A stretch of DNA of 64,000 bases from an uncultured Rivularia sp. (GCA_963665115.1 OY762007.1:6400001-6464000), one strand, 5' to 3'. Shown: positions 4,801 to 41,822, numbered from the stretch's first letter. Program-made: numbers and translations. Notes: a model not told the origin generated them from the sequence alone.

Positions 4801-5883
4801 ATGTTTTTAGGTTCAAGAGCGATTCATGAAAGTGACAGTTTGGCAAGTTTTATTAGTGAAAGTTTTCAAGCTCCGGAAGTAGCTGAGAAGTTGCAAGCAG
4901 CAGCTCTTCAAATTTATGGGGAAACCTCACCCCGTCCTGACGGACACCCCTCTCCTTATCAAGGAGAGGGGAAAGCTTCACCCTCTCCTGATGGACACCC
5001 CTCTCCTTACCAAGGAGAGCAGTGCGTTGCGGAGGTTCCCTCCGTTGAAGCAACTGCGGAAGAGGGGATGGGGGTGAGGTTATCTGCGAGTCGTTATGCT
5101 GCGATACTTACAGGTGAAATAACAACTTTTGCGATTCTTTGGGCTGCGTTACATCATACCCAAATAGATTCACCTTCCGAGTCAATTACTAGCGCTATAG
5201 AATGGGTAAAATTTCATTTTGAAGAAAAACTCAGACAAGCTCTATTAAATTCCCAACCTAAAGTTTTATCTTCCGAAGAAAATACCGAATTAATATCTGG
5301 TTACATTGATAGTATCGGCGATATAGAACAAACCCTACCGGGAGAAGATTGGGAATTAGACGAATATTTGAAAAAACAACCTGGGGAGACGTTATATATA
5401 ACGTCTCTACATAACTCCTCAGATCCCTCTACCCCCTCTACCCCCTCTACCCCCTCCACCCCCTCTACCCCCTCTACCCCCTCTACCTCCTCCGCTCCAA
5501 AATCTTCCTCAATCCAAACCTGGCTAATCGACTGGTTGAGTCAGAAATTAAAATTACTTGAAAACAGCATAGATATAAATAAATCTTTTGCTGACTATGG
5601 GATTGATTCAGTGATTGCTGTGGAATTGGCTCAGGATTTACAGGAATGGTTGAATTATCCCCGTGCTATTGAACCCACTATTGCCTGGAATTTTCCTACA
5701 ATTGAATCATTGAGTAATTATCTGGCTCAAACTTTAATCCAAGAAACTTCACTCGATAATCAACCCGAGGAAATTGAACTCCCGTCAGAAAATTCATCAG
5801 ATTTAGAGTCAATGTCTGATGTGGAATTAGCGGAGTTACTCGCAGCAGAAATTAATGCAGTTAAGGGGAGGGGAAGCGAATGA
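1884..5883 (+). CDS. Starter enzyme: fatty acyl-AMP ligase (FAAL) - acyl-CoA dehydrogenase - ACP; +1 frameshift at ~2017-2019
   Basis: Upstream frame from ATG 1884 reads MSTDFPAFSTVVDLMQYRSNHQPKQQGYIFLADGDRQENSLNYRE and joins LDTKARAIAAHL if one A of GAGAAAC is removed. FAAL motifs LQYTSGSTGNPKG, WLPFYHDMGLIG, YGLAEATL, LRTGDLG; ACAD motifs AFAITEPGAGS, LGGRGY, RIFEG; ACP motif YGIDSV. Confidence 0.92.
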
Positions 5884-8800
5884 GTCAGAATGATGCAAAA
5901 ATTGATTATCGTTCGCTGCTGCAAGACGCACTGACAGAAATGCGTTCTTTACGGGGTAAGTTAGAAGCGGAAAAACAAGCCAAAACCGAACCAATTGCAA
6001 TTATTGGAATGGATTGTCGGTTTCCCGGTGGTGCAAATTCTCCGGAAGCTTATTGGAAATTATTACGAGAGGGAATTGATGCAATTAGTGAAGTTCCGAG
6101 GGAACGTTGGTTAATTGATGACTATTACGATTCCGATCCAGATGTTCCGGGGAAAATGTATACTCGTTACGGTGGATTTATTGATAATGTAGATAAATTT
6201 GACCCGCAATTTTTCGGTATATCTCCTCGGGAAGCAACACAAATGGACCCCCAACAGCGTTTGTTGTTGGAAGTTAGTTATACAGCTTTAGAGCGCTCCG
6301 GTCAAAGCGTTCAAGAATTAAATGGCAGTCATACAGGGGTTTTTGTTGGCATCAGCTTCGATGATTATGCTAAATTCAGCCTTAATTCTGGTGACGTTAA
6401 TCGTATTGATGCCTACAGTAGTTTAGGTAATACCCGCAGTATCGCCGTAGGACGTTTATCTTATGCATTAGGTTTACAAGGCCCGACAATGCAGTTAGAT
6501 ACAACCTGCTCCTCTTCTTTACTAGCGACTCATTTAGCTTGTCAGAGTCTGCGTAGTGGTGAATCCAATTTAGCCTTAGCTGGTGGAGTCAGTTTAATGC
6601 TTTCCCCAGAAGCAACTATTGGTTTTTGTAAATTGAAAGCATTAGCACCAGACGGACGTTGTAAAACCTTTGATGCGAATGCTAATGGTTATGTGAGGGG
6701 AGAAGGATGCGGGATTATTGTACTCAAACGACTTTCCGATGCAATAAGTAATAAAGATAATATTCTTGCTGTAATTAAAGGTTCAGCAGTTAACCACGAC
6801 GGACAAAGCAATGGTTTAACCGCTCCCAACGGTTCAGCACAAGAAAATGTAATTCGACAAGCTATAAAAAACGCTCAAGTCAAACCACTACAAATCCAAT
6901 ATGTAGAAACCCACGGAACGGGTACAAGTTTAGGAGATCCAATCGAAACCCTAGCGCTAGGGAAAATACTCGGTGAAGGTAGAAGCGAAGATAACCCCCT
7001 GACAATTGGTTCCGTCAAAACCAACATCGGACATTTAGAAGCAGCAGCGGGAGTTGCGAGCATAATTAAAGTAACCCTAGCGCTAGGGAATAAACAAATT
7101 CCTCCCCATTTACATTTTCAGAAACCGAATCCTCATATACCTTGGTCAAGACTACCGATTAACGTTCCTACCGAACTTACACCTTGGAATGTTGGTAGTG
7201 AAGAAAAGCGTTTAGCTGGGATTAGTTCCTTCGGGATGAGCGGTACGAATGCTCATGTGGTAATTGAAGATGTAGAGACGTTATACATAACGTCTCCCCA
7301 GCAATCAGAACACACCACCGAACGTCCTCTGCATTTACTGACATTATCGGCGAAGACAGAGCAAGCGTTATCGGAACTTGTAACGAATTACCAAGAATAC
7401 TTGACAAATAATAGTGATGTGAATTTTGCGGATATTTGTTTTAGTGCAAATATAGGGCGATCGCACTTTCAACATCGCTTGAGTATCGTTGCTGAATCTA
7501 CATTTGAAGCAATAGAAGAATTATCAAATTACCAAGAAACCTCACCCCGCGCTTACGCGCACCCCTCTCCTTATCAAGGAGAGGGGAAAATCTCAACCGG
7601 CTTTGAACACCCCTCTCCTTACCAAGGAGAGGGGATGGGGGTGAGGTTATTTCAAGGTGTAACATCTACAAATAAACGTCCTAAAATCGCTTTTCTATTT
7701 ACCGGGGAAGCTAGTCAATATATAAATATGGGTTGGGAATTATATCAAACTCAACCAACTTTTAAACAAGCTTTAAATGAATGCAACAAAATACTAAAAT
7801 CATTATTTAATCTAGATTTATTAACTCTTATTTATTCCTCAAAGGGAACGGGGAATGGGGAACAGGAAATAGGGAATCATTCTAACCCAATGCCCAAAAC
7901 CGCAATATTCGCCATACAATACGCTCTATATAAATTATGGAAATCTTGGGGTGTTAATCCTTCGGTATTAATTGGAGATGGGGTTGGGGAATATGTTGCT
8001 GCTACGGTTGCGGGAGTTTTCTGTTTAGAAGATGCATTAAACTTAGTTGTAAATCTTGCTAAGACTGAATTTGATAAAGTAGCAAATTCAATCAAATACT
8101 CTTCACCACAAATTGAGATAATTTCTGGTATTAACGGTAAATTAATTAATTCAGAAATTACAAATTCACAATATTGGTGTAGCAAGATTTCCTTGGCAGC
8201 AAGCTTTGAAAAAATTATTGATAAACTCAAAGAAATTAATTGTGATATTTGTTTAGAAATAGCATTAGAATCCGCAAATTTATTATCAAATGAAATATTA
8301 TTTTTACCAAGTTTCGGAGAAGAAAGTAATAATCATCAAGATTGGCAAGTAATGCTTTCAAGTTTGGCTCAGATGTATGTCAATGGAGTTAATATTAATT
8401 GGCGTGGTTTTGAGCAAGATTATTCTCGAAATTGTGTTTTATTACCAACTTATCCGTTTCAACGTCAGCGCTATTGGATTGAAGCTCCCAATGTTAAAAA
8501 CTTTCACAACATAAATTCGGAAAGTCTACATCCATTATTAGGACAAAGAATTGATATTGCAAATTTAGAAACGATTCATTTTGAAAATCTAATAAATCAA
8601 GATAATCCTGCTTATTTACAACATCATCAAGTATTTGATACGGTAATTATGCCGTTTTCGGGTTTTGTGGAAATGGTATTAGCTGCTGCTAGTAATCTGT
8701 ATGAAACAAAAGCTGAAATAAAAAATCTGTTATTAACTGATGTAGAAATTCATCAAGCTTTGATTTTAGAAAAAAGTTCTACAACAGTACAATTAATTCT

Positions 8801-11800
8801 CACTCCTATCTCTACATCTACAAATAAAGAATATAAATTTGAAATTTTTAGTTTAGCCGTAGGTTGGGTTGAAAGAAGTGAAACCCAACAATCAAGAAGG
8901 TACGAAACACAAAATCAAACTTGGATATTACACACGAGTGGTAAAGTTAATCAAGAGGCAGAGCCTCAACAACCTCGTTACCAGGCTGAGCCTAGTAACG
9001 AGAAATTTACTCACGAAATTGACGTAGATAATTTTTATCAAAGCTGTCAAGAACAGGGAATTAATTATGGTAAAAGTTTTAACGCAATTAATCAACTTTG
9101 GAATGATGAAAAAATTGCTTTAGGGAAAGTTTGTTTATCTCAAGAATTTATTAGTTCTACAGCTTATCAATTACATCCAATACTTTTAGATGCGAGTTTA
9201 CAAGTTGTAGGTTCTGTTTTAGCAGATAATCAAACCTATTTACCGATTGGAATCAAAAGTTTTACTTTTTCTGGAACTACAAGTAATATTCTCTGGAGTT
9301 ATGTAGAACTTGATAAAAATCAAAATCATAATAATAATTCATCTGTGATGATGGCAGATGTCAAAATTGTGGAACCAGATGGACGTTTGGTTGCTCAAGT
9401 TGAAGGTTTAAAATTAAAATCAGTTGATTCTCAATTTGTTTTCAATCAGATAAATAAAAAGCAGTCTTTTGAAGATTGGCTTTATAAAATAGAATGGCGA
9501 GAACAAGCTATTATTCCGAATTCATATAGTTCGTCGGATTATTTATTATCTCCTCAATTAATTTACGAACAGCTTATTCCTGCTTTACCTAAGTTGGTTG
9601 ATAAACCAGAAATTGAAATTTATCGGCAATTATTACCGAAGCTCGAAAGTTTGAGTATTGCTTATGTTTTAAAAGCTTTTAATGATTTGGGTTGGAAATT
9701 TATTGTCGATGAAAGTTTTTCTACGGTAGAAGTTGTTGAAAAGTTAAAAATTGTATCTCAACACAAGCGTTTGTTGGAGCGTTTGTTGGAAATGTTGGTG
9801 GAAGTTGGTGTATTGAAGAAGGAAGAAGATTTAATAAACCGCAGAGGCGCGGAGGGCGCAGAGGAAGAGGTTGTAGAGGAGTGGAGGGTTGTTGGTGAGA
9901 GGATATGTGATGCTGATGATGAATATCAACAATTATTAGAGAAATATTCTGTTAGTAAGAGCGAATTAAGTTTACTGCATCGTTGTGGTTTGAGTTTGGC
10001 TTCGGTGTTACGGGGTGAAGTTGATGGGGTACAGTTGCTGTTTCCGGAGGGGGATTTATCTACAGCAACGAATCTCTATCAAGATTCTCCTGGTGCGAAG
10101 TTGATGAATAGTTTGGTAGAGCAAGTTGTTAGTACGTCAATTGCTCAAAAGTCTAGCGCTAGGGTTTTACGGATTTTGGAAATTGGTGCGGGTACTGGGG
10201 GAACGACTGCATATTTATTACCATCGCTCGATGCTTCTAGTACTGAATATACTTTTAGCGATGTTTCTCCACTGTTTACAACTAAAGCACGGGAGAGGTT
10301 TGGGGAATATGATTTTGTTAATTATGAGTTGTTAGATATTGAGCAGACGGTTGGTGATGAGTTAAAAAATTCCTTTGATATTATTATTGCTGCTAATGTT
10401 TTACACGCGACTCAAGATATGCGGGAAACATTGGGTAATGTCAATGAATTACTTGCTCCTAATGGGTTATTGGTTTTATTAGAAGGAACTCGTCGTTTAC
10501 GTTGGGTTGATTTAATTTTTGGTTTAACTGAGGGTTGGTGGAGATTTACAGATACGGATTTGCGTGAAAATTATCCTTTGCTATCTGTTGGTAAGTGGGA
10601 GGAAGTTTTACTTCATGGTGGATTTGAGGAAGTTTTACCCATAGCTCCTGAGTTGGATGAAGAGGATTTGTTTAGTCAGCAAGCTGTGATTGTTTCAAGG
10701 AAAACCTCACCCCCAGCCCCTCTCCTTGTTAAGGAGAGGGGAGATTGGTTAATTTTTGGCGATCGCCGTTTTAATATTGGTAAGGAGTTAGCGCAACAGT
10801 TACAAAACCAAGGTGAAAGATGTATCTTGGTTTATTCGGGTACGGTGAAGGAACAACTCAACGAACAAGAATTCAGCATTAATCCAAGGAATTCCCAGAA
10901 TTTTAGTCAATTAATTGAAAATCTATCAAATTATCAATCATCTTTCAAAGGAGTTGTATATCTTTGGGGTTTGGATGCGACTCCTGTTGAAAATCTTAAT
11001 TCCGAAGTGCTGGAAGTTGATTTGGAAAACTATTGCGGTAGCGCTTTATATTTGATTCAAGCTTTGTTGAAAGTTAATATATCAAATACTCCTATATATT
11101 TAGTCACACAAAATTCTCAACCAATAGGAAACAATACAATATCTGGATTCTCCCAATCTTTGTTATGGGGTATTGGTAAAGTAGCAGCGCTCGAAACTGA
11201 TTTTAATTATAAAAATATAGATTTAGATGCACAAACAAATCTAACAGCACAGATACAAACTTTATTAACTGAATTACTATGGTCAGACGAGGAAACACAA
11301 GTTGCTTTCAGAGGTGACAAACGTTATGTTGCTAGATTGGCAAGATATCAAAATTTAGTTCAAAAGCAACCGTTACAATTAACAATTTCCGAACGAGGAA
11401 CTTTAGAAAACCTGGAATTTCAACCCTTAGTTAGAAAGAAACCAGCAGATAATGAAGTTGAAATTCATGTCAAAGCAACAGGAGTTAATTTCCGAGATAT
11501 TTTAAATACTTTGGGATTATATCCGGGGGATGCTGGTGCTTTAGGATGTGAATGTGTAGGTGAAATAGTAGCGCTAGGGAATCAAGTCGAAAATTTAAAG
11601 GTTGGGGATACTGTTATAGCGATTGCTTCAGGAAGTTTCAGCGAGTATGTCACTGTCAATGCTGCAATGGTAGTTGTTAAACCAGAAAAACTTACTATTG
11701 AAGAAACTGCCACAATTGGGGTGACTTTCCTAACTGCACATTATGGTTTACATCATCTTGCGAAAATTTCCCCTGGTGACAAAGTACTGATACATTCCGG

Positions 11801-13619
11801 TGCTGGTGGTGTCGGACAAGCAGCGATTCAAATAGCGCAACAAGCTGGTGCTGAAGTCTTTACAACAGCAAGTCCTGGTAAATGGGAAGTTTTAAAATCA
11901 ATGGGAATTGAGCGTAAAAACATCTTCAATTCCCGTACCCTTGATTTTGCAGAGGAAATAATTAAACTAACCCAGGGTGAAGGGGTAGATATTGTTCTCA
12001 ATTCCTTGTCTGGAGATTTTATTACTCAAAGTTTTTCTCTACTCAAAGACAACGGAAGATTTATAGAGTTGGGTAAAACACAAGATTGGAATTTCACTAA
12101 ATCTCAACTAAAACCAAATGCAGCTTATTTCCCAGTTGATTTAGTAGACTTGTGTCGTCAACAACCCGATTTAATTCAAACCATGCTACGAGATTTGATA
12201 TCTCAATTTGCAGCAAATAAACTCAAACCCCTTCCTTACACTGTTTTCCCATTTGAACAAACCGTCGATGCTTTCCGCTATATGCAGCAGTCTAAGCATA
12301 TTGGTAAAGTTGTAGTTTCTCAAACCTCAGCCCTACAAACCTCACCCCCAACCCCTCTCCTTATTAAGGAGAGGGGAGATGAAGCGCAGCTTTATCGGGG
12401 TGAGGTTGCGACTGCTCCCTCTATCAAAAAAGATGGTACATACCTCATCACAGGTGGACTCGGTGGATTGGGTTTATTAATTGCTGAGTGGTTAGTTAAA
12501 GAAGGTGCGAGAAATTTAGTTTTAGTCAGTCGTCGTGATGTTGATGCAGAAGCTAAACAACGAATTCAAGCTTTAGAAAACTCTAGCGCTAGAGTAATGG
12601 TTGCTCAAGTTGACGTTACTGATAAATCCCAACTCGCGGAATTAATATCAACAATTAAATATTCTACCCCCTCTACCCCCTCTACCCCCTCTCCCCCCTC
12701 TCCCCCTCCCATAAGGGGAATAATCCACGCTGCTGGTGTATTAGACGATGGTGTTTTACAAAATATGAGTTGGGAGCAATTTACTAATGTTGTTCATCCC
12801 AAGGTTCTCGGTGCTTGGAATCTCCACGATTTAACTCAAGATTGTCCTTTGGATTTCTTTGTATTATTCTCTTCAGCTACAGCTTTACTTGGTTCTCCCG
12901 GACAGAGCAATCACGTAGCTGCAAATGTATTTTTAGATTCCTTAGCTCATTATCGTCAAAATATTGGTAAACCGGGATTGAGTATTAATTGGGGAATTTG
13001 GTCGGATGTGGGTTCGGCTGCTAAACGCAATGCTGACAAAGAAATGCAGCTTAAAGGAATAAATGCGATCGCACCGCAAGATGGTATAGATTTATTTGCA
13101 AAAATATTGTGGTCTGATGCTCCTCAAATTGGTGTTTTACCAATTAATTGGTCGCAGTTTTTACAACAAATTAATTCATCATTTTTCGCTGATTTTATAT
13201 CGTCAAATGTAGAAACGCAATATATAACGTCTCTACAAAATGCAAAACCATCAGAACGTCGTCATCTTTTAGAAACACATTTACGAACTCAAATTTCCCA
13301 AATTCTTGGTTTTCAAGCAGATGAAATTGATGCAGAAGCAGGATTTTTTGATTTGGGAATGGATTCTTTAACTTCAGTAGAATTGAAAAATCGGTTACAA
13401 AAAAGTTTAGGAATTTCTCTCAGTTCAACTATTATCTTTGATAGACCAAATTTAAATACATTAGTAGATTATCTCCTTGAAGAAATGGGTTTGGAAAATA
13501 ACGAGGTGGAACAAAAGCCAGTTGAATTAGAAACAGAATCAACAGAATTTTCTGAAGATGACATTGCTGATTTACTGGTTCAAGAATTAATGGAAATTGA
13601 GCGAGGTAAAAAATCATGA
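5880..13619 (+). CDS. Type I PKS module 1: KS - AT(inactive) - DH - C-methyltransferase - ER - KR - ACP
   Basis: KS DTTCSSSL, HGTGT, GHLE; AT remnant GDGVGEY with no Ser; DH HPLLG, HHQVFDTVIMP, HPILLDASLQ; MT LEIGAGTGG, ANVLHAT; ER LIHSGAGGVG; KR GGLGGLG; ACP LGMDSL. ATGA overlap with the upstream gene. Confidence 0.95.
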   Translation: MSQNDAKIDYRSLLQDALTEMRSLRGKLEAEKQAKTEPIAIIGMDCRFPGGANSPEAYWKLLREGIDAISEVPRERWLIDDYYDSDPDVPGKMYTRYGGFIDNVDKFDPQFFGISPREATQMDPQQRLLLEVSYTALERSGQSVQELNGSHTGVFVGISFDDYAKFSLNSGDVNRIDAYSSLGNTRSIAVGRLSYALGLQGPTMQLDTTCSSSLLATHLACQSLRSGESNLALAGGVSLMLSPEATIGFCKLKALAPDGRCKTFDANANGYVRGEGCGIIVLKRLSDAISNKDNILAVIKGSAVNHDGQSNGLTAPNGSAQENVIRQAIKNAQVKPLQIQYVETHGTGTSLGDPIETLALGKILGEGRSEDNPLTIGSVKTNIGHLEAAAGVASIIKVTLALGNKQIPPHLHFQKPNPHIPWSRLPINVPTELTPWNVGSEEKRLAGISSFGMSGTNAHVVIEDVETLYITSPQQSEHTTERPLHLLTLSAKTEQALSELVTNYQEYLTNNSDVNFADICFSANIGRSHFQHRLSIVAESTFEAIEELSNYQETSPRAYAHPSPYQGEGKISTGFEHPSPYQGEGMGVRLFQGVTSTNKRPKIAFLFTGEASQYINMGWELYQTQPTFKQALNECNKILKSLFNLDLLTLIYSSKGTGNGEQEIGNHSNPMPKTAIFAIQYALYKLWKSWGVNPSVLIGDGVGEYVAATVAGVFCLEDALNLVVNLAKTEFDKVANSIKYSSPQIEIISGINGKLINSEITNSQYWCSKISLAASFEKIIDKLKEINCDICLEIALESANLLSNEILFLPSFGEESNNHQDWQVMLSSLAQMYVNGVNINWRGFEQDYSRNCVLLPTYPFQRQRYWIEAPNVKNFHNINSESLHPLLGQRIDIANLETIHFENLINQDNPAYLQHHQVFDTVIMPFSGFVEMVLAAASNLYETKAEIKNLLLTDVEIHQALILEKSSTTVQLILTPISTSTNKEYKFEIFSLAVGWVERSETQQSRRYETQNQTWILHTSGKVNQEAEPQQPRYQAEPSNEKFTHEIDVDNFYQSCQEQGINYGKSFNAINQLWNDEKIALGKVCLSQEFISSTAYQLHPILLDASLQVVGSVLADNQTYLPIGIKSFTFSGTTSNILWSYVELDKNQNHNNNSSVMMADVKIVEPDGRLVAQVEGLKLKSVDSQFVFNQINKKQSFEDWLYKIEWREQAIIPNSYSSSDYLLSPQLIYEQLIPALPKLVDKPEIEIYRQLLPKLESLSIAYVLKAFNDLGWKFIVDESFSTVEVVEKLKIVSQHKRLLERLLEMLVEVGVLKKEEDLINRRGAEGAEEEVVEEWRVVGERICDADDEYQQLLEKYSVSKSELSLLHRCGLSLASVLRGEVDGVQLLFPEGDLSTATNLYQDSPGAKLMNSLVEQVVSTSIAQKSSARVLRILEIGAGTGGTTAYLLPSLDASSTEYTFSDVSPLFTTKARERFGEYDFVNYELLDIEQTVGDELKNSFDIIIAANVLHATQDMRETLGNVNELLAPNGLLVLLEGTRRLRWVDLIFGLTEGWWRFTDTDLRENYPLLSVGKWEEVLLHGGFEEVLPIAPELDEEDLFSQQAVIVSRKTSPPAPLLVKERGDWLIFGDRRFNIGKELAQQLQNQGERCILVYSGTVKEQLNEQEFSINPRNSQNFSQLIENLSNYQSSFKGVVYLWGLDATPVENLNSEVLEVDLENYCGSALYLIQALLKVNISNTPIYLVTQNSQPIGNNTISGFSQSLLWGIGKVAALETDFNYKNIDLDAQTNLTAQIQTLLTELLWSDEETQVAFRGDKRYVARLARYQNLVQKQPLQLTISERGTLENLEFQPLVRKKPADNEVEIHVKATGVNFRDILNTLGLYPGDAGALGCECVGEIVALGNQVENLKVGDTVIAIASGSFSEYVTVNAAMVVVKPEKLTIEETATIGVTFLTAHYGLHHLAKISPGDKVLIHSGAGGVGQAAIQIAQQAGAEVFTTASPGKWEVLKSMGIERKNIFNSRTLDFAEEIIKLTQGEGVDIVLNSLSGDFITQSFSLLKDNGRFIELGKTQDWNFTKSQLKPNAAYFPVDLVDLCRQQPDLIQTMLRDLISQFAANKLKPLPYTVFPFEQTVDAFRYMQQSKHIGKVVVSQTSALQTSPPTPLLIKERGDEAQLYRGEVATAPSIKKDGTYLITGGLGGLGLLIAEWLVKEGARNLVLVSRRDVDAEAKQRIQALENSSARVMVAQVDVTDKSQLAELISTIKYSTPSTPSTPSPPSPPPIRGIIHAAGVLDDGVLQNMSWEQFTNVVHPKVLGAWNLHDLTQDCPLDFFVLFSSATALLGSPGQSNHVAANVFLDSLAHYRQNIGKPGLSINWGIWSDVGSAAKRNADKEMQLKGINAIAPQDGIDLFAKILWSDAPQIGVLPINWSQFLQQINSSFFADFISSNVETQYITSLQNAKPSERRHLLETHLRTQISQILGFQADEIDAEAGFFDLGMDSLTSVELKNRLQKSLGISLSSTIIFDRPNLNTLVDYLLEEMGLENNEVEQKPVELETESTEFSEDDIADLLVQELMEIERGKKS

Positions 13620-28574: not shown

Positions 28575-28661
28575 TATATACTAGCTACGAAAAATGTAGC
28601 TTAATCAATCTATTTTAAGCTGTTTATGGTTGATACGGTTCTATCATAAATATTAGTGAAT

Positions 28662-28689
28662 AAACTCCTAGCGATAAGACTAGGAGTTT
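28662..28689 (+). terminator. Stem-loop, possible terminator or processing site between the hydrolase gene and NRPS1
   Basis: AAACTCCTAG-cgataaga-CTAGGAGTTT, a perfect 10-bp stem followed by T-rich sequence. Confidence 0.45.
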
Positions 28690-28807
28690 CTATTTAGTTA
28701 ATAATAAAACAAGTATAATGATTCTTAAAATCAGTGCAGTCACAGAATTGTTATAAGAAAATGTTTTAAAAGTCGAACTTTCTAACAATGGGGAAGCGGA
28801 AATTGAC

Positions 28808-31800: not shown

Positions 31801-33657
31801 GGTTGCTTATATTGTTTCTTCTCATCCCATAGTTAACAACCAAATTCGTGAATTTTTACAGCAAATACTTCCCGATTATATGATTCCATCATTTTTTGTG
31901 GAATTGGAAAGTTTACCTTTAACAAATAATGGTAAAGTTGACCGGAAAAATTTACCCGTACCAGATTTATCTGAGCGAGAAAATGAAAATAATACTCCAC
32001 CAACTACTGAGAAGGAAATCATCTTAACAGAAATTTGGTCTGAGGTTTTGGGGGTAAATGTTGGCATTGATGATAACTTTTTTGAAATGGGAGGAGATTC
32101 GATTCTCAGTATTCAAATTATTGCGAGAGCGAATCAAGCTGGGTTAACGCTTACTCCACGACAGTTGTTTCAATATCAAACCATTGCCGAACTTGCTACT
32201 GTTGCCGATACAAAACCTCAAATTCAAGCGGAACAAGGTGTTATTACAGGTGAAGTACCGTTAACACCTATTCAACACTGGTTTTTTGAAGAAATATCGC
32301 AAGTTAACTATTATAATCAATCGGTTTTATTGGAAGTTGTACCAAATTTGAAACCTGAATTATTAGAACAAGTTTGGCAAAAGTTACTCACACATCATGA
32401 TGCTTTACGTCTGCGCTATGTGGAAAATGATTCTGAATGGCAACAGTTTTATGTAAATCCCAGCGATATTCCCTCCACTACTGTCGATTTATCGGAGTTA
32501 ACAGAAAACGAGCAAAAGCAAGCAATTACAGAAATTAGTTCTCAACTGCAAACTAGTTTAAATTTATCAGAATCAATATTACAATGCGTATTATTTCAGC
32601 TTGGTGCATCTAAAAATCATCGTCTTTTAATCATTGTTCATCATCTTGTAATTGATAGCGTTTCCTGGCGTATTTTGTTAACAGACTTAGTAACAGCGTA
32701 TAAACAAATTGAAACTGGACTAAATATAGAATTACCACCGAAAACAACTTCATTCCAAACTTGGGCAAATCAATTGATTAACTATGGTCAATCGCAAACG
32801 GTTGTGGATGAATTAAATTATTGGTTGTCTGTAAATTCTCAAGTTTCCTTACCTATCGATTATCAAAATAACGAAACCCAAAATACAATTTCTTCTACTG
32901 CTGAAGTAAGCACAATCTTAAATGCAGAACAAACCTGCACTTTATTAGAAGAAGTTCCAAAAGCTTATAAAACCCAAATCAACGATATTTTACTCACCGC
33001 ATTATTACAAAGTTTTAATCAGTGGACAAACGTATCAAGCTTACTGATATATTTAGAAGGACATGGAAGAGAAGATGTATTCTCAGATGTAGATTTATCA
33101 CGTACAGTTGGTTGGTTCACAACTATATTTCCAGTGGTTTTAAAATTAGATAATAATCGTAACTTAGAAGTAATAATCAAATCAGTAAAAGAACAACTCC
33201 GACAAATACCTGCTCGCGGATTCGGTTACGGATTACTACGCTATCTGAGCAACGATGAAACCATAAAAACCCGTTTAGAAAATCAACAACAAGCCCAGAT
33301 AAAATTTAACTACTTAGGAAAACTTGACTTAAGTACAGATTCCTTAATTTTAGGACTAGCAAAAGAACCCACAGGAAACAACTACAGTCCCCTCAAGGAA
33401 AGCGTCAATATTTAATAGAAATAAACTCATGGGTTTCCGAAGAAAAACTGCAATTTAATTGGAACTATAGCCGCAATATTCATCAACAAACAACTATCGA
33501 AAATCTAGCACAAACATATATTACCAACTTGCAAATTTTAATTACTCATTGTAAATCTCCAGATTCAGGAGGTTACACTCCCTCAGACTTCAAAGCAGCC
33601 AACCTTAACCAAAAACAACTTGATAAATTCATGTCAAAAATAAAAAATAAAAAATAG
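28808..33657 (+). CDS. NRPS 1: C - A(Asn-type) - PCP - E - COM donor; frameshift in C-run at 33389-33392
   Basis: C HHLIADG; A motifs YTSGSTGNPKG, NEYGPTE, YKTGDL; hand-read pocket code about DATKIGEVGK (Asn-like); PCP GGDSI; E HHLVIDSVSW, EGHGRE, RTVGWFT, FNYLG. The E domain continues in another frame (QGKRQYLIEINSW...GGYTPSDF...KIKNKK) to TAG 33655-33657. Confidence 0.92.
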
Positions 33658-33758
33658 TTAGTTGTTAGTTGTTAATTCTTCACTCCAAACAGACGTAGCA
33701 ATGCTACGTCTCTACACTATTTCCTGTTCCCTATTCCCTATTCCCTCTTAATAAAAAA

Positions 33759-36700
33759 ATGGATAACATAATAGACTTATACGAACTTTCCCCCATGCAA
33801 CAAGGGATGCTATTTCATTCCCTATACTCCCCCGAATCGGGAATTTACTTTGAACAACGTAACTGTAAACTAAAAGGTAATCTCAATATTTCAGCTTTCA
33901 AAACCGCATGGCAAAAAGTCATAGAACGTCATACAATTTTACGCACAGCTTTCTATTGGGAAGAAGTAGAAAAACCTCTACAAGTTGTACATAAACAAGT
34001 TGATTTATCTTGGATTGAAGAGAATTGGCAAGATTTCATTATTAATCAACAAAATGATAAATTAGAAGAATTTTTACAAGCAGATAGACAGCAAGGATTT
34101 GATTTAAATCAACCTCCCTTAATGCGCTGTGCTTTATTACAAATACAAACATCGGAATATTATTTTGTTTGGAGTCACCATCACTTATTAATGGATGGTT
34201 GGTGTAACGGAATCTTATTAAAAGAAGTTTTCAGTTTTTATCAAGCAGCAATCAGTGGTAAATCGCTATTTTTACCACATCCACGTCCTTATCGCGATTA
34301 TATCCAATGGTTACAGCAGCAAGATATTGCTTTATCAAAAAAATTTTGGCGAGATAAACTCAAAGGTTTTATAGCACCAACTCCGTTAATTAAAGATAGT
34401 CGAACCGTCACATATCAACAAGATATCGTAAGCGAACAACAAATTCAATTACCTATTAAATTAACAACTGATCTTCAAAATTTAGCACAAGAAAACCGCT
34501 TGACTTTAAATACCATTTCTCAAGGAATTTGGGCAATACTCTTAAGTCGCTACAGTGGAGAAAATGACATCGTATTTGGAGCCACAGTATCCGGTCGTCC
34601 GCCGAATTTACCTGGTGTAGAATCAATAGTAGGTTTATTTATCAATACCTTACCTGTACGAGTAAATCTATCTGGAGACAAAGAATTATTACCTTGGTTG
34701 CAACAATTACAAACTCAGCAAATTGAACAAGAATCTTTTTCTTATAGTTCGTTAATTGATATTAAACAGTGGAGTGATGTACTTCCTGGAGTAGGATTAT
34801 TTGAAAGTTTAGTTATCTTTGAAAACTATCCGGTGTCAATCGATGCTGTTTTACAGGGATGGAGCGATGATTTACAAATTACTCAAGCTAAAGGTTTTGA
34901 ACGCACTAATTACCCTCTTTCACTAACAGTTATTCCTGGTGCAGAACTGTCATTACGGATTAACTATGACAGCAACCGTTTTGAATCGGCAACCATTACC
35001 AGAATGTTAGGTCATTTAGAAACATTATTACAAGGTATCGTCACAAATCCGCAACAAAAACCGTGGGAATTACCTTTATTAACCGCAATAGAAAAACAGC
35101 AATTACTAGTTGACTGGAATGATACTAACTGCGATTATTCAAACCTTTGTATTCATCAATTATTTGCAGCACAAGCGGAGAAAACACCGGATAAAATAGC
35201 AGTTATATTTGAATCGCAACAGCTTACATATAAAGAGTTAAATCAAAAAGCAAATCAACTTGCTCATTATTTAAAATCGGTTGGTGTAGAAGAAGAAACG
35301 CGGGTTGGAATTTGTTTAGAGCGTTCTGAAAAAATGCTCGTGGGGTTGTTGGGTATTTTGAAAGCGGGTGGAACTTATATTCCTTTAGATCCAGCTTTTC
35401 CTGAAGAACGTTTGACGTTTATGCTGGAAGATTCGGGGGTGAATTTTTTAATTACAGATTCTCGAATCTCACCCCTAACCCCTCTCCTTGTTAAGGAGAA
35501 GGGAAAAGAATCTGAAACCCCTCTCCTTGATAAGGAGAGGGGAGATAAAGCTGTGCTTTATCGGGGTGAGGTTATTAACATTGATAATGACTGGGAATTA
35601 ATTGAGAAACAATCTTCTGGAAATCTAGCAATTCAAACAACCCCGGAAGATTTAGCCTATATTATCTACACTTCGGGTTCTACAGGTAAACCCAAAGGAG
35701 TGCAAATTATGCACAAATCCTTGGTTAACTGTCTTGAATCAATGCAACAAAAACCGGGAATCACATCAAATGATGTTTTGCTATCAGTAACTACACTATC
35801 TTTTGATATTGCTGGATTAGAATTATATTTACCTTTAATTACAGGTGCTATATTAATTATTGCTAGTAGAGAAACTGCAACTGATGGAATAAGATTAGCG
35901 CAAAGTATTGAAACAAATCAAGCAACAATAATGCAAGCGACTCCCGCAACTTGGAGGTTATTGCTAACAGCAGGTTGGAAGGGTAATCGACAGTTAAAAG
36001 TTCTTTGTGGTGGTGAAGCTTTAGATATAAATGTTGCTGAAGAATTATTGAAACGTAGTAAAGAAGTATGGAATTTATACGGTCCGACGGAAGCAACTAT
36101 TTGGTCATCTGTAACTGAATGTAGAGACGTTAAATTTAACGTCTCCCAAAATGTCCCTACATCTGTTCCGATTGGTAAACCAGTTAATAATACCCAGTTT
36201 TACGTTTTAAATGATTATTTACAACCCGTTCCGATTGGTGTTCCGGGAGAATTATATATTGGTGGTACAGGATTAGCAAAGGGTTATTTAAATAAACCAG
36301 AATTAACAGCCCAAAAATTTATTCCCAATCCATTTTCTTATTCTACCCCCTCTTCCCTCTCTACCCCCTCTTCCCCCTCTAATCTTTATAAGACGGGAGA
36401 TTCAGTACGTTATTTACCTGACGGTAATTTGGAATATTTGGGACGAATTGATTATCAAGTTAAGTTACGTGGTTTTCGGATTGAGTTAGGAGAAATTGAA
36501 GCGGTTTTGATTCAGCATTCTCTTGTAAAACAAGCGGTGGTGACATTATATAAAAATCAAGATGATGAAAAATTAATTGCTTATGTGGTTCCCTCTTCAG
36601 AAATATCGCAAACTGAATTAAGGCAGTTTTTGCAGGGTAAATTACCCGCTTATATGATTCCTTCTAGCTACATAATGTTAGAAGAATTTCCGCTTACACC

Positions 36701-39700
36701 AAATCGTAAAATTGACCAAAAAGCTTTACCAATACCAGATGACATAAACCAAATATCAAATAAAACGCCAAGATATATTCCACCACGTACCGTTACTGAG
36801 GAGATAGTAGCTGGTATTTGGGCTGAGGTGTTGAATTTACAACAGGTTAGCATTGACGATAATTTCTTTGAATTGGGAGGACATTCTTTACTCGCAACCC
36901 GCGTCAATTCTCAAGTCAGACAAGCTTTTGCTGTAGAATTACCATTGCGATCGCACTTTGAAAAACCTACTATCACAGAACTTGCGATTTGTATCGAAAC
37001 AGCTACCCGAAAATCAGTAGCACCACCGATTGAACCCGTCCCTCGTGAAGGAAATTTACCTCTATCCTTTGCTCAACAACGACTGTGGTTTTTATGTCAG
37101 TTAGAATCCGATAGTCCCTACTATAATATCCCCGCAGCCGTAAGGTTAACTGGCTCGCTCAATATTGACGCTTTAAAACAAAGTTTAAATGATATTGTAC
37201 GTCGTCACGAAACTCTACGCACGGCGTTTTCAACTGTTGACGGACAACCCACACAGCAAATTCATGCGGTTGATTCGCTACCTTTTTCAATTATTGATTT
37301 AAGTAATATTGATGAATCAACACGGGAAACTAAAATCGAGGGATTAGCGCGAATTGAAGCAATGCAATCCTTTAAACTCGATAGTAGTCCTTTGCTGCGA
37401 GTGAAATTATTACAGTTAAGCGATACAGACCATGTAATTTTACTTACTTTTCATCATATTATTGCCGACGGCTGGTCAATTGGGGTTTTGGTGCGAGAAT
37501 TAGGCATTTTGTATCAAACATATCTTCAAAAACCTAACCCCCCAACCCCCTTCCCTACCAGGGAAGGGGGAGAAGTCAAAGCCTCTCGCCTTGTAGGAGA
37601 GAGGTTTTTTAATTCACTATCACAATTACCAATTCAATATGCCGATTTCGCTGTTTGGCAAAGAGAATGGTTACAAGGGGAAGTATTAGAAAATCAACTG
37701 AATTATTGGCAAGAGCAGTTACAAAGTGCGTCAATCTTGTTAGAATTGCCTACAGATTATCCACGTCCTGCTGTTAGAAGTTTAAGAGGAGATAGCTACA
37801 CTTTTCAAATTTGTCTAGAATTAACCGCAGCCCTGAAACGCTTAAGTCAACAGTCAGGTTGTACTTTATTTATGACGCTGTTAGCAGCTTTTCAAACTTT
37901 ACTTTATCGCTACACGGGTAATGAGGATATAGTTGTTGGAACCAGCATTGCTAATCGTAATTATCCGGAAATTGAAGGGCTAATTGGCTTTTTTGTCAAT
38001 ACTTTGGCATTGCGAACTGATTTATCAGAAAATCCGACTTTTGAGGAATTATTGAATCGGGTACGAGAAGTTTCGTTAGGTGCTTACGCTCATCAAGATT
38101 TACCTTTTGAACAACTTGTAGATAGTTTACAACTCCAACGTTCTTTAAGTTATACTCCATTATTTCAAGTGATGTTCGTGCTGCAAAATGCGCCAATGGA
38201 AGCTTTAGAAATTGAAGGTTTGCATTGGGAACCCCTTGAAAGTAATAGTAGCACTGCAAAGTTTGATTTAACTTTGTCAATGCAGGAAACTTCAGAAGGT
38301 TTGACAGGAGTATTGGAATATAGTTTAGATTTATTTGATTTAGAAACTATTGAGCGAATCGCAGGAAATTATCTAAGTTTATTAACAGCAATTATTGATG
38401 AACCAGAGCAGCAAATATCTGAGTTACCGATTTTAACTACATCGGAACAGCAATTACTTGAGGAATGGAATCAAACCACAATAGAATATCCGCGAGATAA
38501 ATGCGTGCATCAACTATTTGAGGAACAAGTTCAACAAATACCGAATAGTACAGCACTTGTTTGGCAAAATAAAGAATTAAATCAAAAACTTACATATGAT
38601 GAATTAAATATCAGAGTTAATCAACTAGCTCATCATCTCATAGGCTTAGGAGTCAAACCACAAACACCAGTTGGTATTTATATAGAACGTTCCCCAGAAG
38701 CTATTATTGGCATATTAGCAATTCTTAAAGCAGGAGGAATTTATGTTCCTTTAGATCCAGCATATCCCCAAGAACGGTTAACTTTTATGTTGGAAGATGC
38801 TGGGGTAGAATTTTTGATTACAGATTCTAAAACCTCACAAACCTCACCCCCAGCCCCTCTCCTTAACAAGGAGAGGGGAAAAGAATTCACAACCCCTCTC
38901 CTTAATAAGGAGAGGGGTGATAAAGCGCAGCTTTATCGGGGTGAGGTTATTAATCTTGATAAGAATTGGGAAATAATTAATCAAAATAGTGCTAAAAATC
39001 CTATTGAGTTACTAACACCAGAAAACTTAGCGTATATCATGTACACTTCTGGATCAACCGGGATACCAAAAGGGGTTTGTACAACACATCGAGGAATTGT
39101 CCGCTTAGTCAAATCGAGTAATTACGTTAATTTAAGTGCAGAAGAAATTATTTTACAAGCTGCGCCAATTTCCTTCGACGCTTCCACATTTGAAATTTGG
39201 GGTGCTTTACTCAACGGAGGAAAATTAGTTCTTTTACCAACTCAAAAACCTTCATTAAAAGAGTTGGGAGAAACATTAGAAAAATATCATATTTCAACTC
39301 TGTGGTTAACAGCAGGTTTATTTCATCTAATGGTAGATGAACAACCCCAAAGTTTAAAAAGTGTTCGACAATTATTAGCTGGTGGAGATGTCATATCACC
39401 AATTCATGCTCAGAAACTACAGCAAATCCATCCAAACTGTCAGTTAATTAACGGTTATGGTCCTACAGAAAGCACAACATTTGCTTGCTGTTATTCTGTT
39501 CCTAAAAATCACCCAGCAGACAAACCAATACCAATAGGTTATCCAATTTCTAACACCCAAGTTTACATTTTAGATAGTCATTTACAACCCGTTCCTATAG
39601 GTGTCCCCGGTGAATTATATATTAGTGGTGATGGTTTAGCTCGTGGTTATTTGAATCGTGCAGAATTAACCGCAGAAAAATTTATTCCCAACCCGTTTTT

Positions 39701-41822
39701 TGAAGGCAGAAGGCAGAAGGCAGAAGGCAGAACAATGCCCAATGCCCAATGCCCAATGCCTAAATTATATAAAACTGGTGACAAAGTTAGTTATCGGATG
39801 GATGGTGCGATTGAATACCTCGGTCGTTTCGATAATCAAGTTAAAATTCGGGGTTTCCGAGTTGAATTAGGAGAAGTTGAAACTGCTTTATCTCAACATC
39901 CGCAGGTTCAAGAAGTTGTTGTCATTGTACAAAATCAAGACAATATTCAAAGGTTAGTTGCTTATTTTGTACCAGTTGTATGTAGAGACGAGATAGATCG
40001 CGTCTCTTCTAATAATTTAGGAAGTTTTTTAAGCGATAAACTCCCAGAATACCTCATTCCTTCCATCTTTATATCTCTCCCAGAATTACCTCTTACAGCT
40101 AACGGAAAAGTAAATCGTCGCGCTCTTCCTAATCCAGATATTATCACCTCAGAAGATGAATTTGTAACTCCCACAACTCCAATTGAAACAGCACTCGCAC
40201 AAATTTGGGTGGATATTTTGCGACTTGAAAAAGTAGGAATTAACGACAACTTCTTTGAATTAGGGGGAGATTCAATTTTAGCAATTCAAATTATTAGTCG
40301 CGCTAATCAAGCGGGAATTCAAATTACACCAAAACAGTTATTTCAACATCAAACTATCGCTGAACTAACAACTATCGCAACTCAAACCCCGTTAATAAAA
40401 GCCGAACAAGGAATTATTACAGGTTTTGTTCCCCTTACACCGATTCAACATTGGTTCTTTGAACAGCAAAAATCAAATCCTCATCACTTCAATCAAGCTG
40501 TTTTACTCAAAGTTAAAACCAAGCTCAATTTAAACTGGTTAGAACAAGCATTGCAAGAATTATTATTACATCATGATGCATTTCGACTGCGATTTGAGCA
40601 AACCGAATCTGGTTGGAAACAGTTTCATACCGAACCATTACCAGAAGTTCCTTTTACCTGTTTTGACCTTTCTAAACTCACAGATTCACAGCAACAAAAT
40701 GCAATTACAAATGTCGCCAATCAAATCCAGAAAAGTCTCAATTTTTCAACAGGTTCAGTAATACGAGTTGCATTATTTAACTTAGGTGAAAATCAAGCAA
40801 GTCGCTTACTATTTGTAATTCACCATTTAGTAATTGACGGCGTTTCTTGGCGAATATTATTATCAGACTTACAAACCGGATACGAACAACTAAGTCAAGC
40901 AAAAGCAATTCAACTCCCATTGAAAACCACTTCATTTAAACAATGGGCAGAACATTTGCAGACATATGCAAATGACCTCTCCCTAACCCTCTCCTACAAT
41001 GAGAGGGAACAAGATTCAAAGTCTCTCGACCATGCCGAGAGAGATTTCCCCAACACAATTGCTACCAACGAACAAATAGAAATTGTACTTTCCTCAGAAC
41101 ACACCCAAGCATTATTAAAAGAAGTTCCGACAACATATAACACCCAAATTAACGACATATTACTAACAGCTTTAGTTAAAACATTTGCTCAATTGACAGG
41201 CAAATCATCACTTTTAATTGATTTAGAAGGACATGGAAGAAGCGAATTATTTGAGAACCTTAACTTATCCCGCACAATTGGTTGGTTCACAAATATAGTC
41301 CCAGTCAACTTAGATTTAGGAGAATTAGCAGATATTAATAATCTAGAAGAAGCAATCAAATGCATCAAAGAACAATTACGTATACCTAACAATGGTATAG
41401 ATTATAGTGTATGGCGATATCTTAAAGAAAATAAAAACCAGAATTTTGAATTAACAAAACCTGAAATTAGCTTTAACTATCTAGGACAATTCGACTCGAT
41501 GTTAGCAACATCAAACGTATTTGAATTAGCACAAGAATCACTCGGCTTAACCCAAGATATCAACTCAGAAAGACCATATATACTAGAAATTAACGGTTCA
41601 ATAATTGAAAAAAAACTTAAATTTACTTGGACTTATAATAAGCATTTTTACGATAAATCGCTAATAGATAATTTAGGCGAAAAATATCTAGAAACACTAA
41701 TAAAATTAATCGAACATTGTCAATCTCCTGAAGCTAGTGGTTACACACCCTCAGATTTTTCTTTAGCAGAAATTGAGCAAAATCAATTAGATGATATTTT
41801 AGCGAGAGTTGATTTTGAGTGA
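33759..41822 (+). CDS. NRPS 2: C(DCL) - A(Gly) - PCP - C - A(Val-like) - PCP - E - COM donor; no thioesterase
   Basis: N-terminus IDLYELSPMQQGMLFH (post-epimerase C); HHLLMDG; A1 code about DILQLGLIWK (Gly); PCP GGHSL; C HHIIADG; A2 code about DAFWLGGTFK (Val-like); PCP GGDSI; E HHLVIDGVSW; C-terminal GYTPSDFSLAEIEQNQLDDIL. Confidence 0.94.
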   Translation: MDNIIDLYELSPMQQGMLFHSLYSPESGIYFEQRNCKLKGNLNISAFKTAWQKVIERHTILRTAFYWEEVEKPLQVVHKQVDLSWIEENWQDFIINQQNDKLEEFLQADRQQGFDLNQPPLMRCALLQIQTSEYYFVWSHHHLLMDGWCNGILLKEVFSFYQAAISGKSLFLPHPRPYRDYIQWLQQQDIALSKKFWRDKLKGFIAPTPLIKDSRTVTYQQDIVSEQQIQLPIKLTTDLQNLAQENRLTLNTISQGIWAILLSRYSGENDIVFGATVSGRPPNLPGVESIVGLFINTLPVRVNLSGDKELLPWLQQLQTQQIEQESFSYSSLIDIKQWSDVLPGVGLFESLVIFENYPVSIDAVLQGWSDDLQITQAKGFERTNYPLSLTVIPGAELSLRINYDSNRFESATITRMLGHLETLLQGIVTNPQQKPWELPLLTAIEKQQLLVDWNDTNCDYSNLCIHQLFAAQAEKTPDKIAVIFESQQLTYKELNQKANQLAHYLKSVGVEEETRVGICLERSEKMLVGLLGILKAGGTYIPLDPAFPEERLTFMLEDSGVNFLITDSRISPLTPLLVKEKGKESETPLLDKERGDKAVLYRGEVINIDNDWELIEKQSSGNLAIQTTPEDLAYIIYTSGSTGKPKGVQIMHKSLVNCLESMQQKPGITSNDVLLSVTTLSFDIAGLELYLPLITGAILIIASRETATDGIRLAQSIETNQATIMQATPATWRLLLTAGWKGNRQLKVLCGGEALDINVAEELLKRSKEVWNLYGPTEATIWSSVTECRDVKFNVSQNVPTSVPIGKPVNNTQFYVLNDYLQPVPIGVPGELYIGGTGLAKGYLNKPELTAQKFIPNPFSYSTPSSLSTPSSPSNLYKTGDSVRYLPDGNLEYLGRIDYQVKLRGFRIELGEIEAVLIQHSLVKQAVVTLYKNQDDEKLIAYVVPSSEISQTELRQFLQGKLPAYMIPSSYIMLEEFPLTPNRKIDQKALPIPDDINQISNKTPRYIPPRTVTEEIVAGIWAEVLNLQQVSIDDNFFELGGHSLLATRVNSQVRQAFAVELPLRSHFEKPTITELAICIETATRKSVAPPIEPVPREGNLPLSFAQQRLWFLCQLESDSPYYNIPAAVRLTGSLNIDALKQSLNDIVRRHETLRTAFSTVDGQPTQQIHAVDSLPFSIIDLSNIDESTRETKIEGLARIEAMQSFKLDSSPLLRVKLLQLSDTDHVILLTFHHIIADGWSIGVLVRELGILYQTYLQKPNPPTPFPTREGGEVKASRLVGERFFNSLSQLPIQYADFAVWQREWLQGEVLENQLNYWQEQLQSASILLELPTDYPRPAVRSLRGDSYTFQICLELTAALKRLSQQSGCTLFMTLLAAFQTLLYRYTGNEDIVVGTSIANRNYPEIEGLIGFFVNTLALRTDLSENPTFEELLNRVREVSLGAYAHQDLPFEQLVDSLQLQRSLSYTPLFQVMFVLQNAPMEALEIEGLHWEPLESNSSTAKFDLTLSMQETSEGLTGVLEYSLDLFDLETIERIAGNYLSLLTAIIDEPEQQISELPILTTSEQQLLEEWNQTTIEYPRDKCVHQLFEEQVQQIPNSTALVWQNKELNQKLTYDELNIRVNQLAHHLIGLGVKPQTPVGIYIERSPEAIIGILAILKAGGIYVPLDPAYPQERLTFMLEDAGVEFLITDSKTSQTSPPAPLLNKERGKEFTTPLLNKERGDKAQLYRGEVINLDKNWEIINQNSAKNPIELLTPENLAYIMYTSGSTGIPKGVCTTHRGIVRLVKSSNYVNLSAEEIILQAAPISFDASTFEIWGALLNGGKLVLLPTQKPSLKELGETLEKYHISTLWLTAGLFHLMVDEQPQSLKSVRQLLAGGDVISPIHAQKLQQIHPNCQLINGYGPTESTTFACCYSVPKNHPADKPIPIGYPISNTQVYILDSHLQPVPIGVPGELYISGDGLARGYLNRAELTAEKFIPNPFFEGRRQKAEGRTMPNAQCPMPKLYKTGDKVSYRMDGAIEYLGRFDNQVKIRGFRVELGEVETALSQHPQVQEVVVIVQNQDNIQRLVAYFVPVVCRDEIDRVSSNNLGSFLSDKLPEYLIPSIFISLPELPLTANGKVNRRALPNPDIITSEDEFVTPTTPIETALAQIWVDILRLEKVGINDNFFELGGDSILAIQIISRANQAGIQITPKQLFQHQTIAELTTIATQTPLIKAEQGIITGFVPLTPIQHWFFEQQKSNPHHFNQAVLLKVKTKLNLNWLEQALQELLLHHDAFRLRFEQTESGWKQFHTEPLPEVPFTCFDLSKLTDSQQQNAITNVANQIQKSLNFSTGSVIRVALFNLGENQASRLLFVIHHLVIDGVSWRILLSDLQTGYEQLSQAKAIQLPLKTTSFKQWAEHLQTYANDLSLTLSYNEREQDSKSLDHAERDFPNTIATNEQIEIVLSSEHTQALLKEVPTTYNTQINDILLTALVKTFAQLTGKSSLLIDLEGHGRSELFENLNLSRTIGWFTNIVPVNLDLGELADINNLEEAIKCIKEQLRIPNNGIDYSVWRYLKENKNQNFELTKPEISFNYLGQFDSMLATSNVFELAQESLGLTQDINSERPYILEINGSIIEKKLKFTWTYNKHFYDKSLIDNLGEKYLETLIKLIEHCQSPEASGYTPSDFSLAEIEQNQLDDILARVDFE

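Follow-up and report, generated by a model that had tools for sequence, protein, structure and literature searches.

The 64,000-nt stretch analysed here (GCA_963665115.1 OY762007.1:6400001-6464000, from an uncultured Rivularia sp.; one strand, called the window at its full length) carries a polyketide synthase (PKS)/nonribosomal peptide synthetase (NRPS) gene cluster, six genes of which contain short repeats from about nine families. The cluster comprises a FAAL-ACAD-ACP gene, two paralogous reducing and methylating PKSs, a third PKS, a luciferase-like monooxygenase, a hydrolase, two NRPSs and two ABC transporters. The six repeat-bearing genes lie on the plus strand: g1 (1981..5883; FAAL, acyl-CoA dehydrogenase and ACP), g2 (5880..13619; PKS with KS, degenerate AT, DH, MT, ER, KR and ACP), its paralogue g3 (13616..21362; two open reading frames (ORFs) here, a single ORF in four full-length orthologues), g4 (21355..26335; PKS with KS, AT, KR and ACP, split into two ORFs here and single in orthologues), g5 (28808..33415; NRPS with C, A, PCP and a condensation-type domain, ending prematurely here and open over 1594-1678 aa in orthologues) and g6 (33759..41822; NRPS with two modules). 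Parts of the orthologous cluster are found in nine congeners (G006, G008, G010, G011, G015, G022, G024, G025 and G026) at about 70-90% protein identity, and a close orthologue of g6 carries the source label Rivularia sp.

A motif and tandem-repeat scan of the whole window, in which 9-mers were left unscored inside the RTX ORF, returned 46 repeat hits at 32 sites within seven large FAAL/PKS/NRPS ORFs. An earlier interpretation of the window made from its letters (the sequence-only reading) had counted more than 30 inserts in the PKS/NRPS coding sequences and none in the ABC, RTX, argD or Gfo genes, and the scan bears out both statements: with the exception noted for RTX, the 11 other ORFs (a short KS piece, the luciferase-like monooxygenase, the hydrolase, two ABC, RTX, DUF4347, Gfo, argD and two others) gave no hit. 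Tandem Repeats Finder (TRF) added degenerate arrays at 7843, 20334 and 36342. The element cores measure 19-31 nt. Copies of one family are translated in different frames, as that reading had noticed; frames 0, 1 and 2 account for 2, 9 and 4 copies of family A, and frames 0 and 2 for 4 and 5 copies of family G. Among the insert peptides it had named, TSPPTPLLIKERGDEAQLYRGEV and HPSPYQGEG are present in the translations, whereas VETLYITSL proved to be a consensus of VETLYITSP/H, GETLYITSL and VETQYITSL; the family B that it left undefined is probably a reversed family A, or family A containing an inner hairpin. A junction-spanning peptide predicted from an insert-bearing ORF is LLIKERGDEAQLYR.

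All insert sites are given on the plus strand. In g1, a family C remnant with a partly deleted hairpin (2962..3018) is full in G008 and absent in four orthologues; a 9-mer array in the FAAL-ACAD linker (3654..3690) has a K element as its counterpart in G008; two family A (BoxC-type) hairpins with a nested J (4947..5047) are matched by heptamers in G015; and a family G element, a repetitive extragenic palindrome (REP) of the GTAG kind, stands with a 9-mer array ahead of the ACP (5385..5492). The KS-AT linker of g2 holds family G (7274..7297, equivalent to the site at 14995 in the paralogue) and two family A hairpins (7562..7634; family G in four orthologues), followed by a degenerate heptamer array in the AT remnant (7843..7877; 9-mers in three orthologues). 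Its DH contains a family H GTAG REP (8859..8889; absent from G010 and G015) and a family I palindrome (8979..8997). Further on come a family K element (9837..9861) absent in 6/6 orthologues, where the flanks have diverged too, a family A copy 3' of the MT domain (10717..10741), a family A copy of the 'AQLY' subtype in the ER-KR linker (12352..12376; 7/9-mers or K in orthologues), a 9-mer array in the KR (12663..12706) and family G in the KR-ACP linker (13211..13234).

The paralogue g3 carries family G in its KS-AT linker (14995..15018), a second family G copy (15262..15285; family A in three orthologues), a 9-mer array in the AT remnant (15489..15531), family G with degenerate tandem copies in the DH (16526..16585), a K element common to G008 only (18257..18281), an inverted pair of family D hairpins (18884..19008), two 'AQLY' family A hairpins in the ER-KR linker (19984..20056) and the TRF-detected 9-mer array in the KR (20334..20364). 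In g4 we find two family A hairpins whose boundaries enclose G in G015 and 9-mers in G024 (22748..22811), a 9-mer array in the AT (23234..23277), a family C copy replaced by a GxxExxY-type repeat in six orthologues and by nothing in one (24287..24311), and a family D array with a nested J (24890..25010) lacking in four orthologues. In g5, family C and C2 hairpins (30371..30472) add a net 81 nt, are absent in 8/8 orthologues and show no target duplication; a family A copy in the A domain (31173..31197) is family G in four orthologues; and a heptamer array fills the KFIPNPF...LYKTGD loop (31568..31605), where orthologues have A, A plus J, G or other heptamers. Finally, g6 contains a pair of family A hairpins within a loop of an A domain (35479..35542), family G in an A domain (36123..36146), a TRF-detected 9-mer array in the KFIPNPF loop (36342..36381; family A in G008), a C-domain site with families C and C2 (37546..37604; family A in seven orthologues), two family A hairpins (38854..38917) where three orthologues have family G and one has no element, two heptamer arrays within a KFIPNPF loop (39702..39760; A or G in orthologues) and family G in the A subdomain (39984..40007); the sites at 37546, 38854 and 39984 are modelled as coil.

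No insert breaks its reading frame, as the sequence-only reading had maintained. Three genes that are single ORFs in orthologues have extra bases here, at about 18777 (18777..18777, one extra base), 21753 (21753..21753, in a C run of the KS gene) and 33389 (33389..33390, in a C run), none of them within a repeat. Long contigs of the sister runs X2 and X3 match the window and have none of the three breaks; the break at 18777 is also absent from run X4, a related strain, while in run X1 the break at 21753 is kept, the sequence at 33389 is one base shorter and 18777 falls in a contig gap. The three breaks are either errors in the reads or the assembly, or changes that arose very recently in a single sample. 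They would speak, together with other window genes that look split, for regarding the inserts as an assembly artefact or as junk filling a dead cluster. We find that view hardly credible: the contigs of X2 and X3 are intact, and open-frame orthologues carry the same inserts.

The inserts are foreign to the enzymes that host them. Across 116 distant NRPS homologues the gap fraction is 0.3-0.8 at the inserted stretches (0.2 at a short G insert) and mostly below 0.05 elsewhere, and a distant cluster of like layout (G047) gives one hit in six ORFs. The possibility that the inserts are ancestral linkers is ruled out by these gaps and the nearly repeat-free distant cluster. An AlphaFold model of one NRPS module with four insert sites (67 sequences; mean pLDDT 87.9) shows coil at three of the inserts and a short helix of lower confidence plus coil at the fourth, and the two longest inserts fall below pLDDT 50 (residues 180-195 and 607-635). 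The PKS sites were assigned to linkers and loops from Pfam boundaries and alignments, so that the inserts are predicted to sit in surface loops and linkers.

The elements themselves are not built to preserve a frame, as had been supposed. When neighbouring hairpins of the same family were compared, with seven gene-edge pairs excluded and gene limits taken from a simple ORF caller, the spacing was divisible by three for 13 of the 14 coding pairs and for only 8 of the 29 intergenic ones (Fisher p 6e-5). Arrays deep in genes are likewise a matter of unit length, making up 29 of 95 for 9-mers versus 10 of 1361 for 7-mers. The frame is kept by selective filtering and not by element design. The related claim that frame preservation argues for selection on the cluster holds for the lineage and not for this copy, because most inserts are common to some of the orthologues (75-90% protein identity).

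A genome-wide count, which the sequence-only reading had proposed, showed the families to be dispersed and mostly intergenic (for 7-mers, 1053 of 1361 arrays), with copies deep in ORFs numbering 36/110 for A, 12/29 for C and 9/45 for D. Against this background the cluster stands out: hairpin-family hits number 33 in 36.8 kb (9.0 per 10 kb) compared with 18 in the 562 kb of other ORFs of at least 1000 aa (0.32; binomial p 9e-28, the copies being non-independent), and the density exceeds that of non-coding DNA 11.9-fold for A, 9.8-fold for C and 6.0-fold for D. Of the 7 copies that the genome has of the rare 'AQLY' subtype of family A, 5 lie in megasynthases. A regional excess of repeats around the window was considered and ruled out, the coding copies accounting for the excess in the 250-kb bin. 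Megasynthase clusters differ among themselves, with 43 hits over the 40 kb of the present one, 24 in a nearby 38-kb NRPS cluster and none in another 36-kb NRPS cluster, which has no full-length match among 26 congeners and may, on this slender ground, have arrived recently.

One could suppose that repeats land at random over the genome and that only in-frame copies in tolerant loops persist, the inserts amounting to a natural insertion scan, as had been suggested. The clear frame filtering and the coil at the modelled sites fit that description, and so do copies in other long multidomain proteins (kinase-AAA, WD40, CHAT/TPR, HEAT and CobN/magnesium chelatase) and a family G density equal to that of non-coding DNA. 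Filtering alone cannot produce the 6- to 12-fold excess of A, C and D over non-coding DNA unless intergenic copies vanish much faster; moreover, many families return to a small number of loops, paralogous modules have copies in common, and one NRPS cluster is empty. We therefore retain from the scan the tolerant loops and not the randomness, and consider pure survivorship unlikely: random insertion and survival are insufficient to explain the pattern. As further observations on hosts outside the cluster, a CobN/magnesium chelatase gene (G000:C1:5346252-5350484, L089) carries five tandem in-frame family A hairpins; in four kinase-AAA paralogues (L066, L077, L095 and L096) one and the same kinase loop bears family A, and L077 has a family G position in common with L078; and single inserts occur in housekeeping-type genes (CobB-like, Mur ligase, ThiO-ThiG and others).

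Comparison among orthologues reveals an exchange of inserts at fixed positions. For 39 hand-chosen sites (35 with an insert in the window and four seen only in orthologues), a script found a different family in at least one orthologue at 17, to which the site at 24287 is added by eye as the eighteenth, and 32 sites have no detected repeat in at least one genome; the cluster loci of the nine genomes carry 3.7-12.6 hits per 10 kb. One A domain illustrates the exchange: its KFIPNPF...LYKTGD loop holds heptamers, A, A with a nested J, or G according to the genome. Where one insert stands in place of another or of host sequence (30371, 24890 and 22748), the boundaries are shared, host bases have been removed and no target duplication was seen. 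Two stretches of g2 look like tracts of gene conversion with its paralogue. At aa 467-510 the within-genome identity of the paralogues is 0.78-0.87 in 5/5 genomes versus 0.72-0.75 between orthologues, and at aa 639-685 it exceeds the orthologue identity in three of the four genomes scored; both stretches adjoin insert sites, and elsewhere the PKS paralogues are far apart (mostly 0.5-0.7, versus 0.8-0.9 for orthologues). Local copying by recombination would be the simplest reading of the shared and overwritten loops. Substitutions near the 7/9-mer arrays of the cluster differ little from background. Near K inserts, C>T (13/25) and A>G (20/146) changes are raised, and run X4 differs over 17700-19000 by clustered A-for-G changes and by a patch that has been exchanged around the K insert of 18257.

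The AT domains of g2 and g3 (about 7690-8200 and 15330-15800) look shortened and dead, their GHSxG motif reading GDGxG or ADGxG; the motif is likewise degenerate in the orthologues where it was located, and g4 retains GHSIG. Several insert sites and the conversion tracts fall in or ahead of these remnants.

The same comparisons bear on the idea that the inserts are selected, either as recombination handles that diversify modules or for tuning linker length, translation or mRNA stability. A density above the intergenic level, occupation of the same loops across nine genomes and an overlap of conversion tracts with some of the sites would all be expected. Such a role sits poorly with the lack of conservation of peptide, frame, length and family at individual sites, with the many positions empty in one genome or another, and with distant homologues that do without the inserts; we hold it to be quite improbable.

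How the repeats spread is suggested by the small genes that they flank. Families A, C, D and E share a layout of a pyrimidine stem, a loop, a purine stem and a G-rich tail mirroring the purine strand; they are GC-rich, dispersed, multi-copy and found as inverted pairs (18884-19008, and around DUF559 genes), and composites of A and D end in inverted tails that are the third strands of the paired hairpins. At least 8 of 10 triplets fit triplex symmetry in 75/110 copies of A, 29/29 of C, 35/45 of D and 3/3 of E, compared with 18-46 per 1000 controls (2-5%). A search of Rfam gave no match at the gathering score. Each of the three DUF559 genes of the genome is flanked by its own BoxC-type family. 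DUF559 occurs in 37 of the 61 genomes searched, and a GC hairpin lies within 300 nt in 52 of 66 DUF559 loci, on both sides in 34, as opposed to 42 and 1 of 300 control ORFs. On the DUF559 protein tree, with 52 labelled loci, 6 changes of stem type suffice whereas none of 1000 shuffles needed fewer than 25, a difference overstated by the test because kin share stem labels; paralogous DUF559 genes of one genome carry different stems in 12/12 genomes with at least two labelled genes. The sole solved structure matching DUF559 is PDB 3hrl. Four DUF559 matches (L108, L111, L118 and L119) lie within long open frames of 389-1400 aa, which suggests in-frame fusion of a nuclease cassette. Among the PD-(D/E)XK nucleases, PMC3424549 puts DUF559 into one group with Vsr and a homing endonuclease of group I introns, so that nicking by it is plausible.

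Other families have other neighbours. The suggestion that a RAYT mobilises the repeats fits only two of them. Family H, with a GTAG tag next to its palindrome, stands on both sides of a RAYT gene (G000:C1:786400; 202.9 bits on NF047646, cut-off 80), and family G arrays stand on both sides of a RAYT-like gene (G000:C1:378903) that scores 50.6 bits, under that cut-off. A RAYT acting on all families is ruled out, since 0/10 Y1_Tnp loci are flanked by A, C or D. Families A, C, D and K and the 7/9-mers lack the GTAG tag and flank DUF559, GxxExxY or four-helix-bundle genes in a layout that is REPtron-like and nothing more. The four-helix-bundle genes (TIGR02436, with a weak match to Avd) are bracketed by heptamers and 9-mers at about 7 of the genome's 11 loci by eye and at 20 of 29 loci in relatives (29 of 163 matches examined) versus 12/400 controls; PF05635 is likened to Avd in PMC10053308. 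GxxExxY genes are bracketed by inverted 9-10-nt repeats at about 24 of 28 loci by eye, the strict K pattern being met at 5/28 versus 1/400 controls. Family J is a hairpin of about 45 nt with 53 copies genome-wide (5026 and 24989 in the window), many of which, judged by eye, lie inside other repeats (BoxC-type, REPs, K and heptamers) or inside J itself. A count of nesting among the families in general gave mostly 4-19% within 40 nt, and 31% of 16 K copies, against a control of 13%, and so did not bear out nesting as a general habit of the families. In the literature outside subscription journals and bioRxiv supplements, covered mostly at abstract level, we found no link of DUF559, four-helix-bundle or GxxExxY genes to flanking repeats, no activity for repeat-flanked DUF559, and nothing on crowding of repeats in PKS/NRPS genes, family turnover in megasynthase loops or the skew halo described below.

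These associations also weigh on an account that dispenses with protein partners, in which hairpins, triplexes and tandem repeats break and slip by themselves, host recombination patches the damage and small genes merely collect repeats. A third strand that keeps triplex symmetry across different stems, inserts that are replacements without target duplication, and the instability of such motifs in E. coli with no mobile-element link (as reported in PMC4666352) are what it would predict. Passive collection predicts otherwise than what is seen around the genes, where each of four unrelated types of repeat encloses, as inverted copies, the genes of a protein family of its own, and where DUF559 clade and stem type go together even for paralogues within a genome; the account seems improbable to us.

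We consider it probable, on balance, that the inserts are genome-wide repeats, in frame in predicted loops and linkers, which are likely to be tolerated passengers spread by partner genes and to have been recopied and overwritten by recombination. Most families, present genome-wide, stand as inverted copies on both sides of a single kind of small gene. The partner proteins would cut or copy their own repeats and so move them, a step that we rate somewhat better than even for DUF559 and RAYT and lower for the others. Frame-breaking copies are purged, and copies that break the predicted fold would be too. The inserts of occupied loops are replaced, probably by recombinational copying; a loop once opened may keep taking further patches, and gene conversion between repeated modules and between strains could lift the density over the intergenic level.

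Several observations weigh against this proposal. The partner link is one of flanking association; the genome has 29 copies of family C and no C-clade gene among its three DUF559 matches, only three copies of family E despite an adjacent E-clade DUF559 gene, and a GxxExxY gene of its own that is broken, and families I and J yielded no partner gene. The density of family G, as said, does not exceed that of non-coding DNA, and 7-mers are rarer in the cluster than there. The repeat-free 36-kb NRPS cluster resides in the same genome and is ordinary in GC and HIP1 content. Finally, conversion was seen in the KS-AT linker, the AT remnant and the KR start, and not in the DH, the MT or other sites, several insert windows being unscorable.

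An observation of a different kind concerns silent sites around the tandem arrays. At fourfold-degenerate sites the strand running away from a 7- or 9-mer array is rich in G/T and poor in A/C, with a residual skew of +0.15 and +0.22 at 150-300 nt that is gone by 1-2 kb and appears regardless of array orientation or gene arrangement; controls lie at about 0.01, and the hairpin families show little. Within the window, 32800-33600 and 40000-41600 are C/A-rich and 9200-10800 and 17200-19200 are G/T-rich. A close relative has the same skew at shared arrays, where divergence is not raised, and a paired test of skew after array gain found no difference over just 8 gene ends, at low power. Displaced single-stranded DNA would yield such a pattern. 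In a bolder version of our proposal, the DUF559, RAYT, Avd-like four-helix-bundle and GxxExxY mini-genes would be autonomous mobilisers, the loop repeats would serve as cut sites that drive conversion and a patchwork evolution of PKS/NRPS genes, and the skew would stem from the same strand-specific process; this is conceivable, and we put it forward as doubtful.

Very small repeats lying inside heptamers and inside one another are reportedly known from heterocystous cyanobacteria, among the small dispersed repeats (SDRs) of Elhai and co-workers (2008) and the short tandemly repeated repetitive (STRR) sequences of Mazel and co-workers (1990). Family J nests in a like manner to the SDRs, a likeness of behaviour, and the heptamers here resemble STRR in being tandem 7-nt units, dispersed and mostly intergenic. 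The partner-gene links or the loop turnover may partly be covered by Elhai et al. 2008. Families A, C, D and E share with BoxC/PIT/TMECO the stem-loop-stem-loop-third-strand layout and the inverted pairs (Holder et al. 2015, PMC4666352). In that article, motifs of this kind are abundant in cyanobacteria and the 23 TMECO copies of E. coli are always intergenic, unlike family A with its copies deep in genes and its stems that follow DUF559 clades; the E. coli DUF559 gene ycjD, which the article does not name, has TMECO no. 9 about 170 nt downstream. Intragenic REPs and cyanobacterial GTAG families have been described (Di Nocera et al. 2013, PMC3733652); G and H share the GTAG tag of REPtrons, H flanking a RAYT gene and G a RAYT-like one, and remain unmatched to the numbered families in the supplement text of that paper. 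Rickettsia palindromic elements (RPEs), of 105-146 bp, lie likewise in frame within protein genes, 19 in number, and one insert-bearing enzyme is still active, as reviewed by Delihas 2008 (PMC2229807); the units in the window are smaller, crowd six genes in about nine families and swap with one another. Miniature inverted-repeat transposable elements (MITEs) differ in their target-site duplication, in place of which host bases are replaced at 30371, 24890 and 22748. In-frame palindromes (RPEs and intragenic REPs), BoxC and STRR are thus already known; what the window adds is some nine families in one cluster, the excess of A, C and D over non-coding density, the swapping of families at the same site and the conversion tracts.

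Some neighbouring features deserve mention. The repeat-rich second NRPS cluster (G000:C1:6323985-6361654), with its 24 hits, lies 40 kb upstream on the opposite strand and is fragmented; no thioesterase domain was seen in the NRPS genes of the window cluster, so the two clusters might work together. Further window genes appear split, namely a dGTPase-like gene in three pieces (45786-47094), a DUF4347/RTX surface protein in two ORFs (47181-56595) and an argD-like aminotransferase III in two ORFs (60234-61497), perhaps by the same type of error as the three cluster breaks. The RTX-type protein at 47400-54000 consists of about 22 tandem units of some 285 nt (95 aa) each.

The orthologue set maps about 39 positions in PKS/NRPS proteins that differ from strain to strain and take in foreign residues, as many as about 80, and such permissive positions would be useful for tagging, splitting and swapping modules. 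For the spread of BoxC/triplex repeats and cyanobacterial heptamers, each now has a named candidate protein, and the clade-specific stems of DUF559 provide mutual controls. If it is true that the repeats seed conversion between modules, they would constitute an overlooked force in the diversification of natural products.

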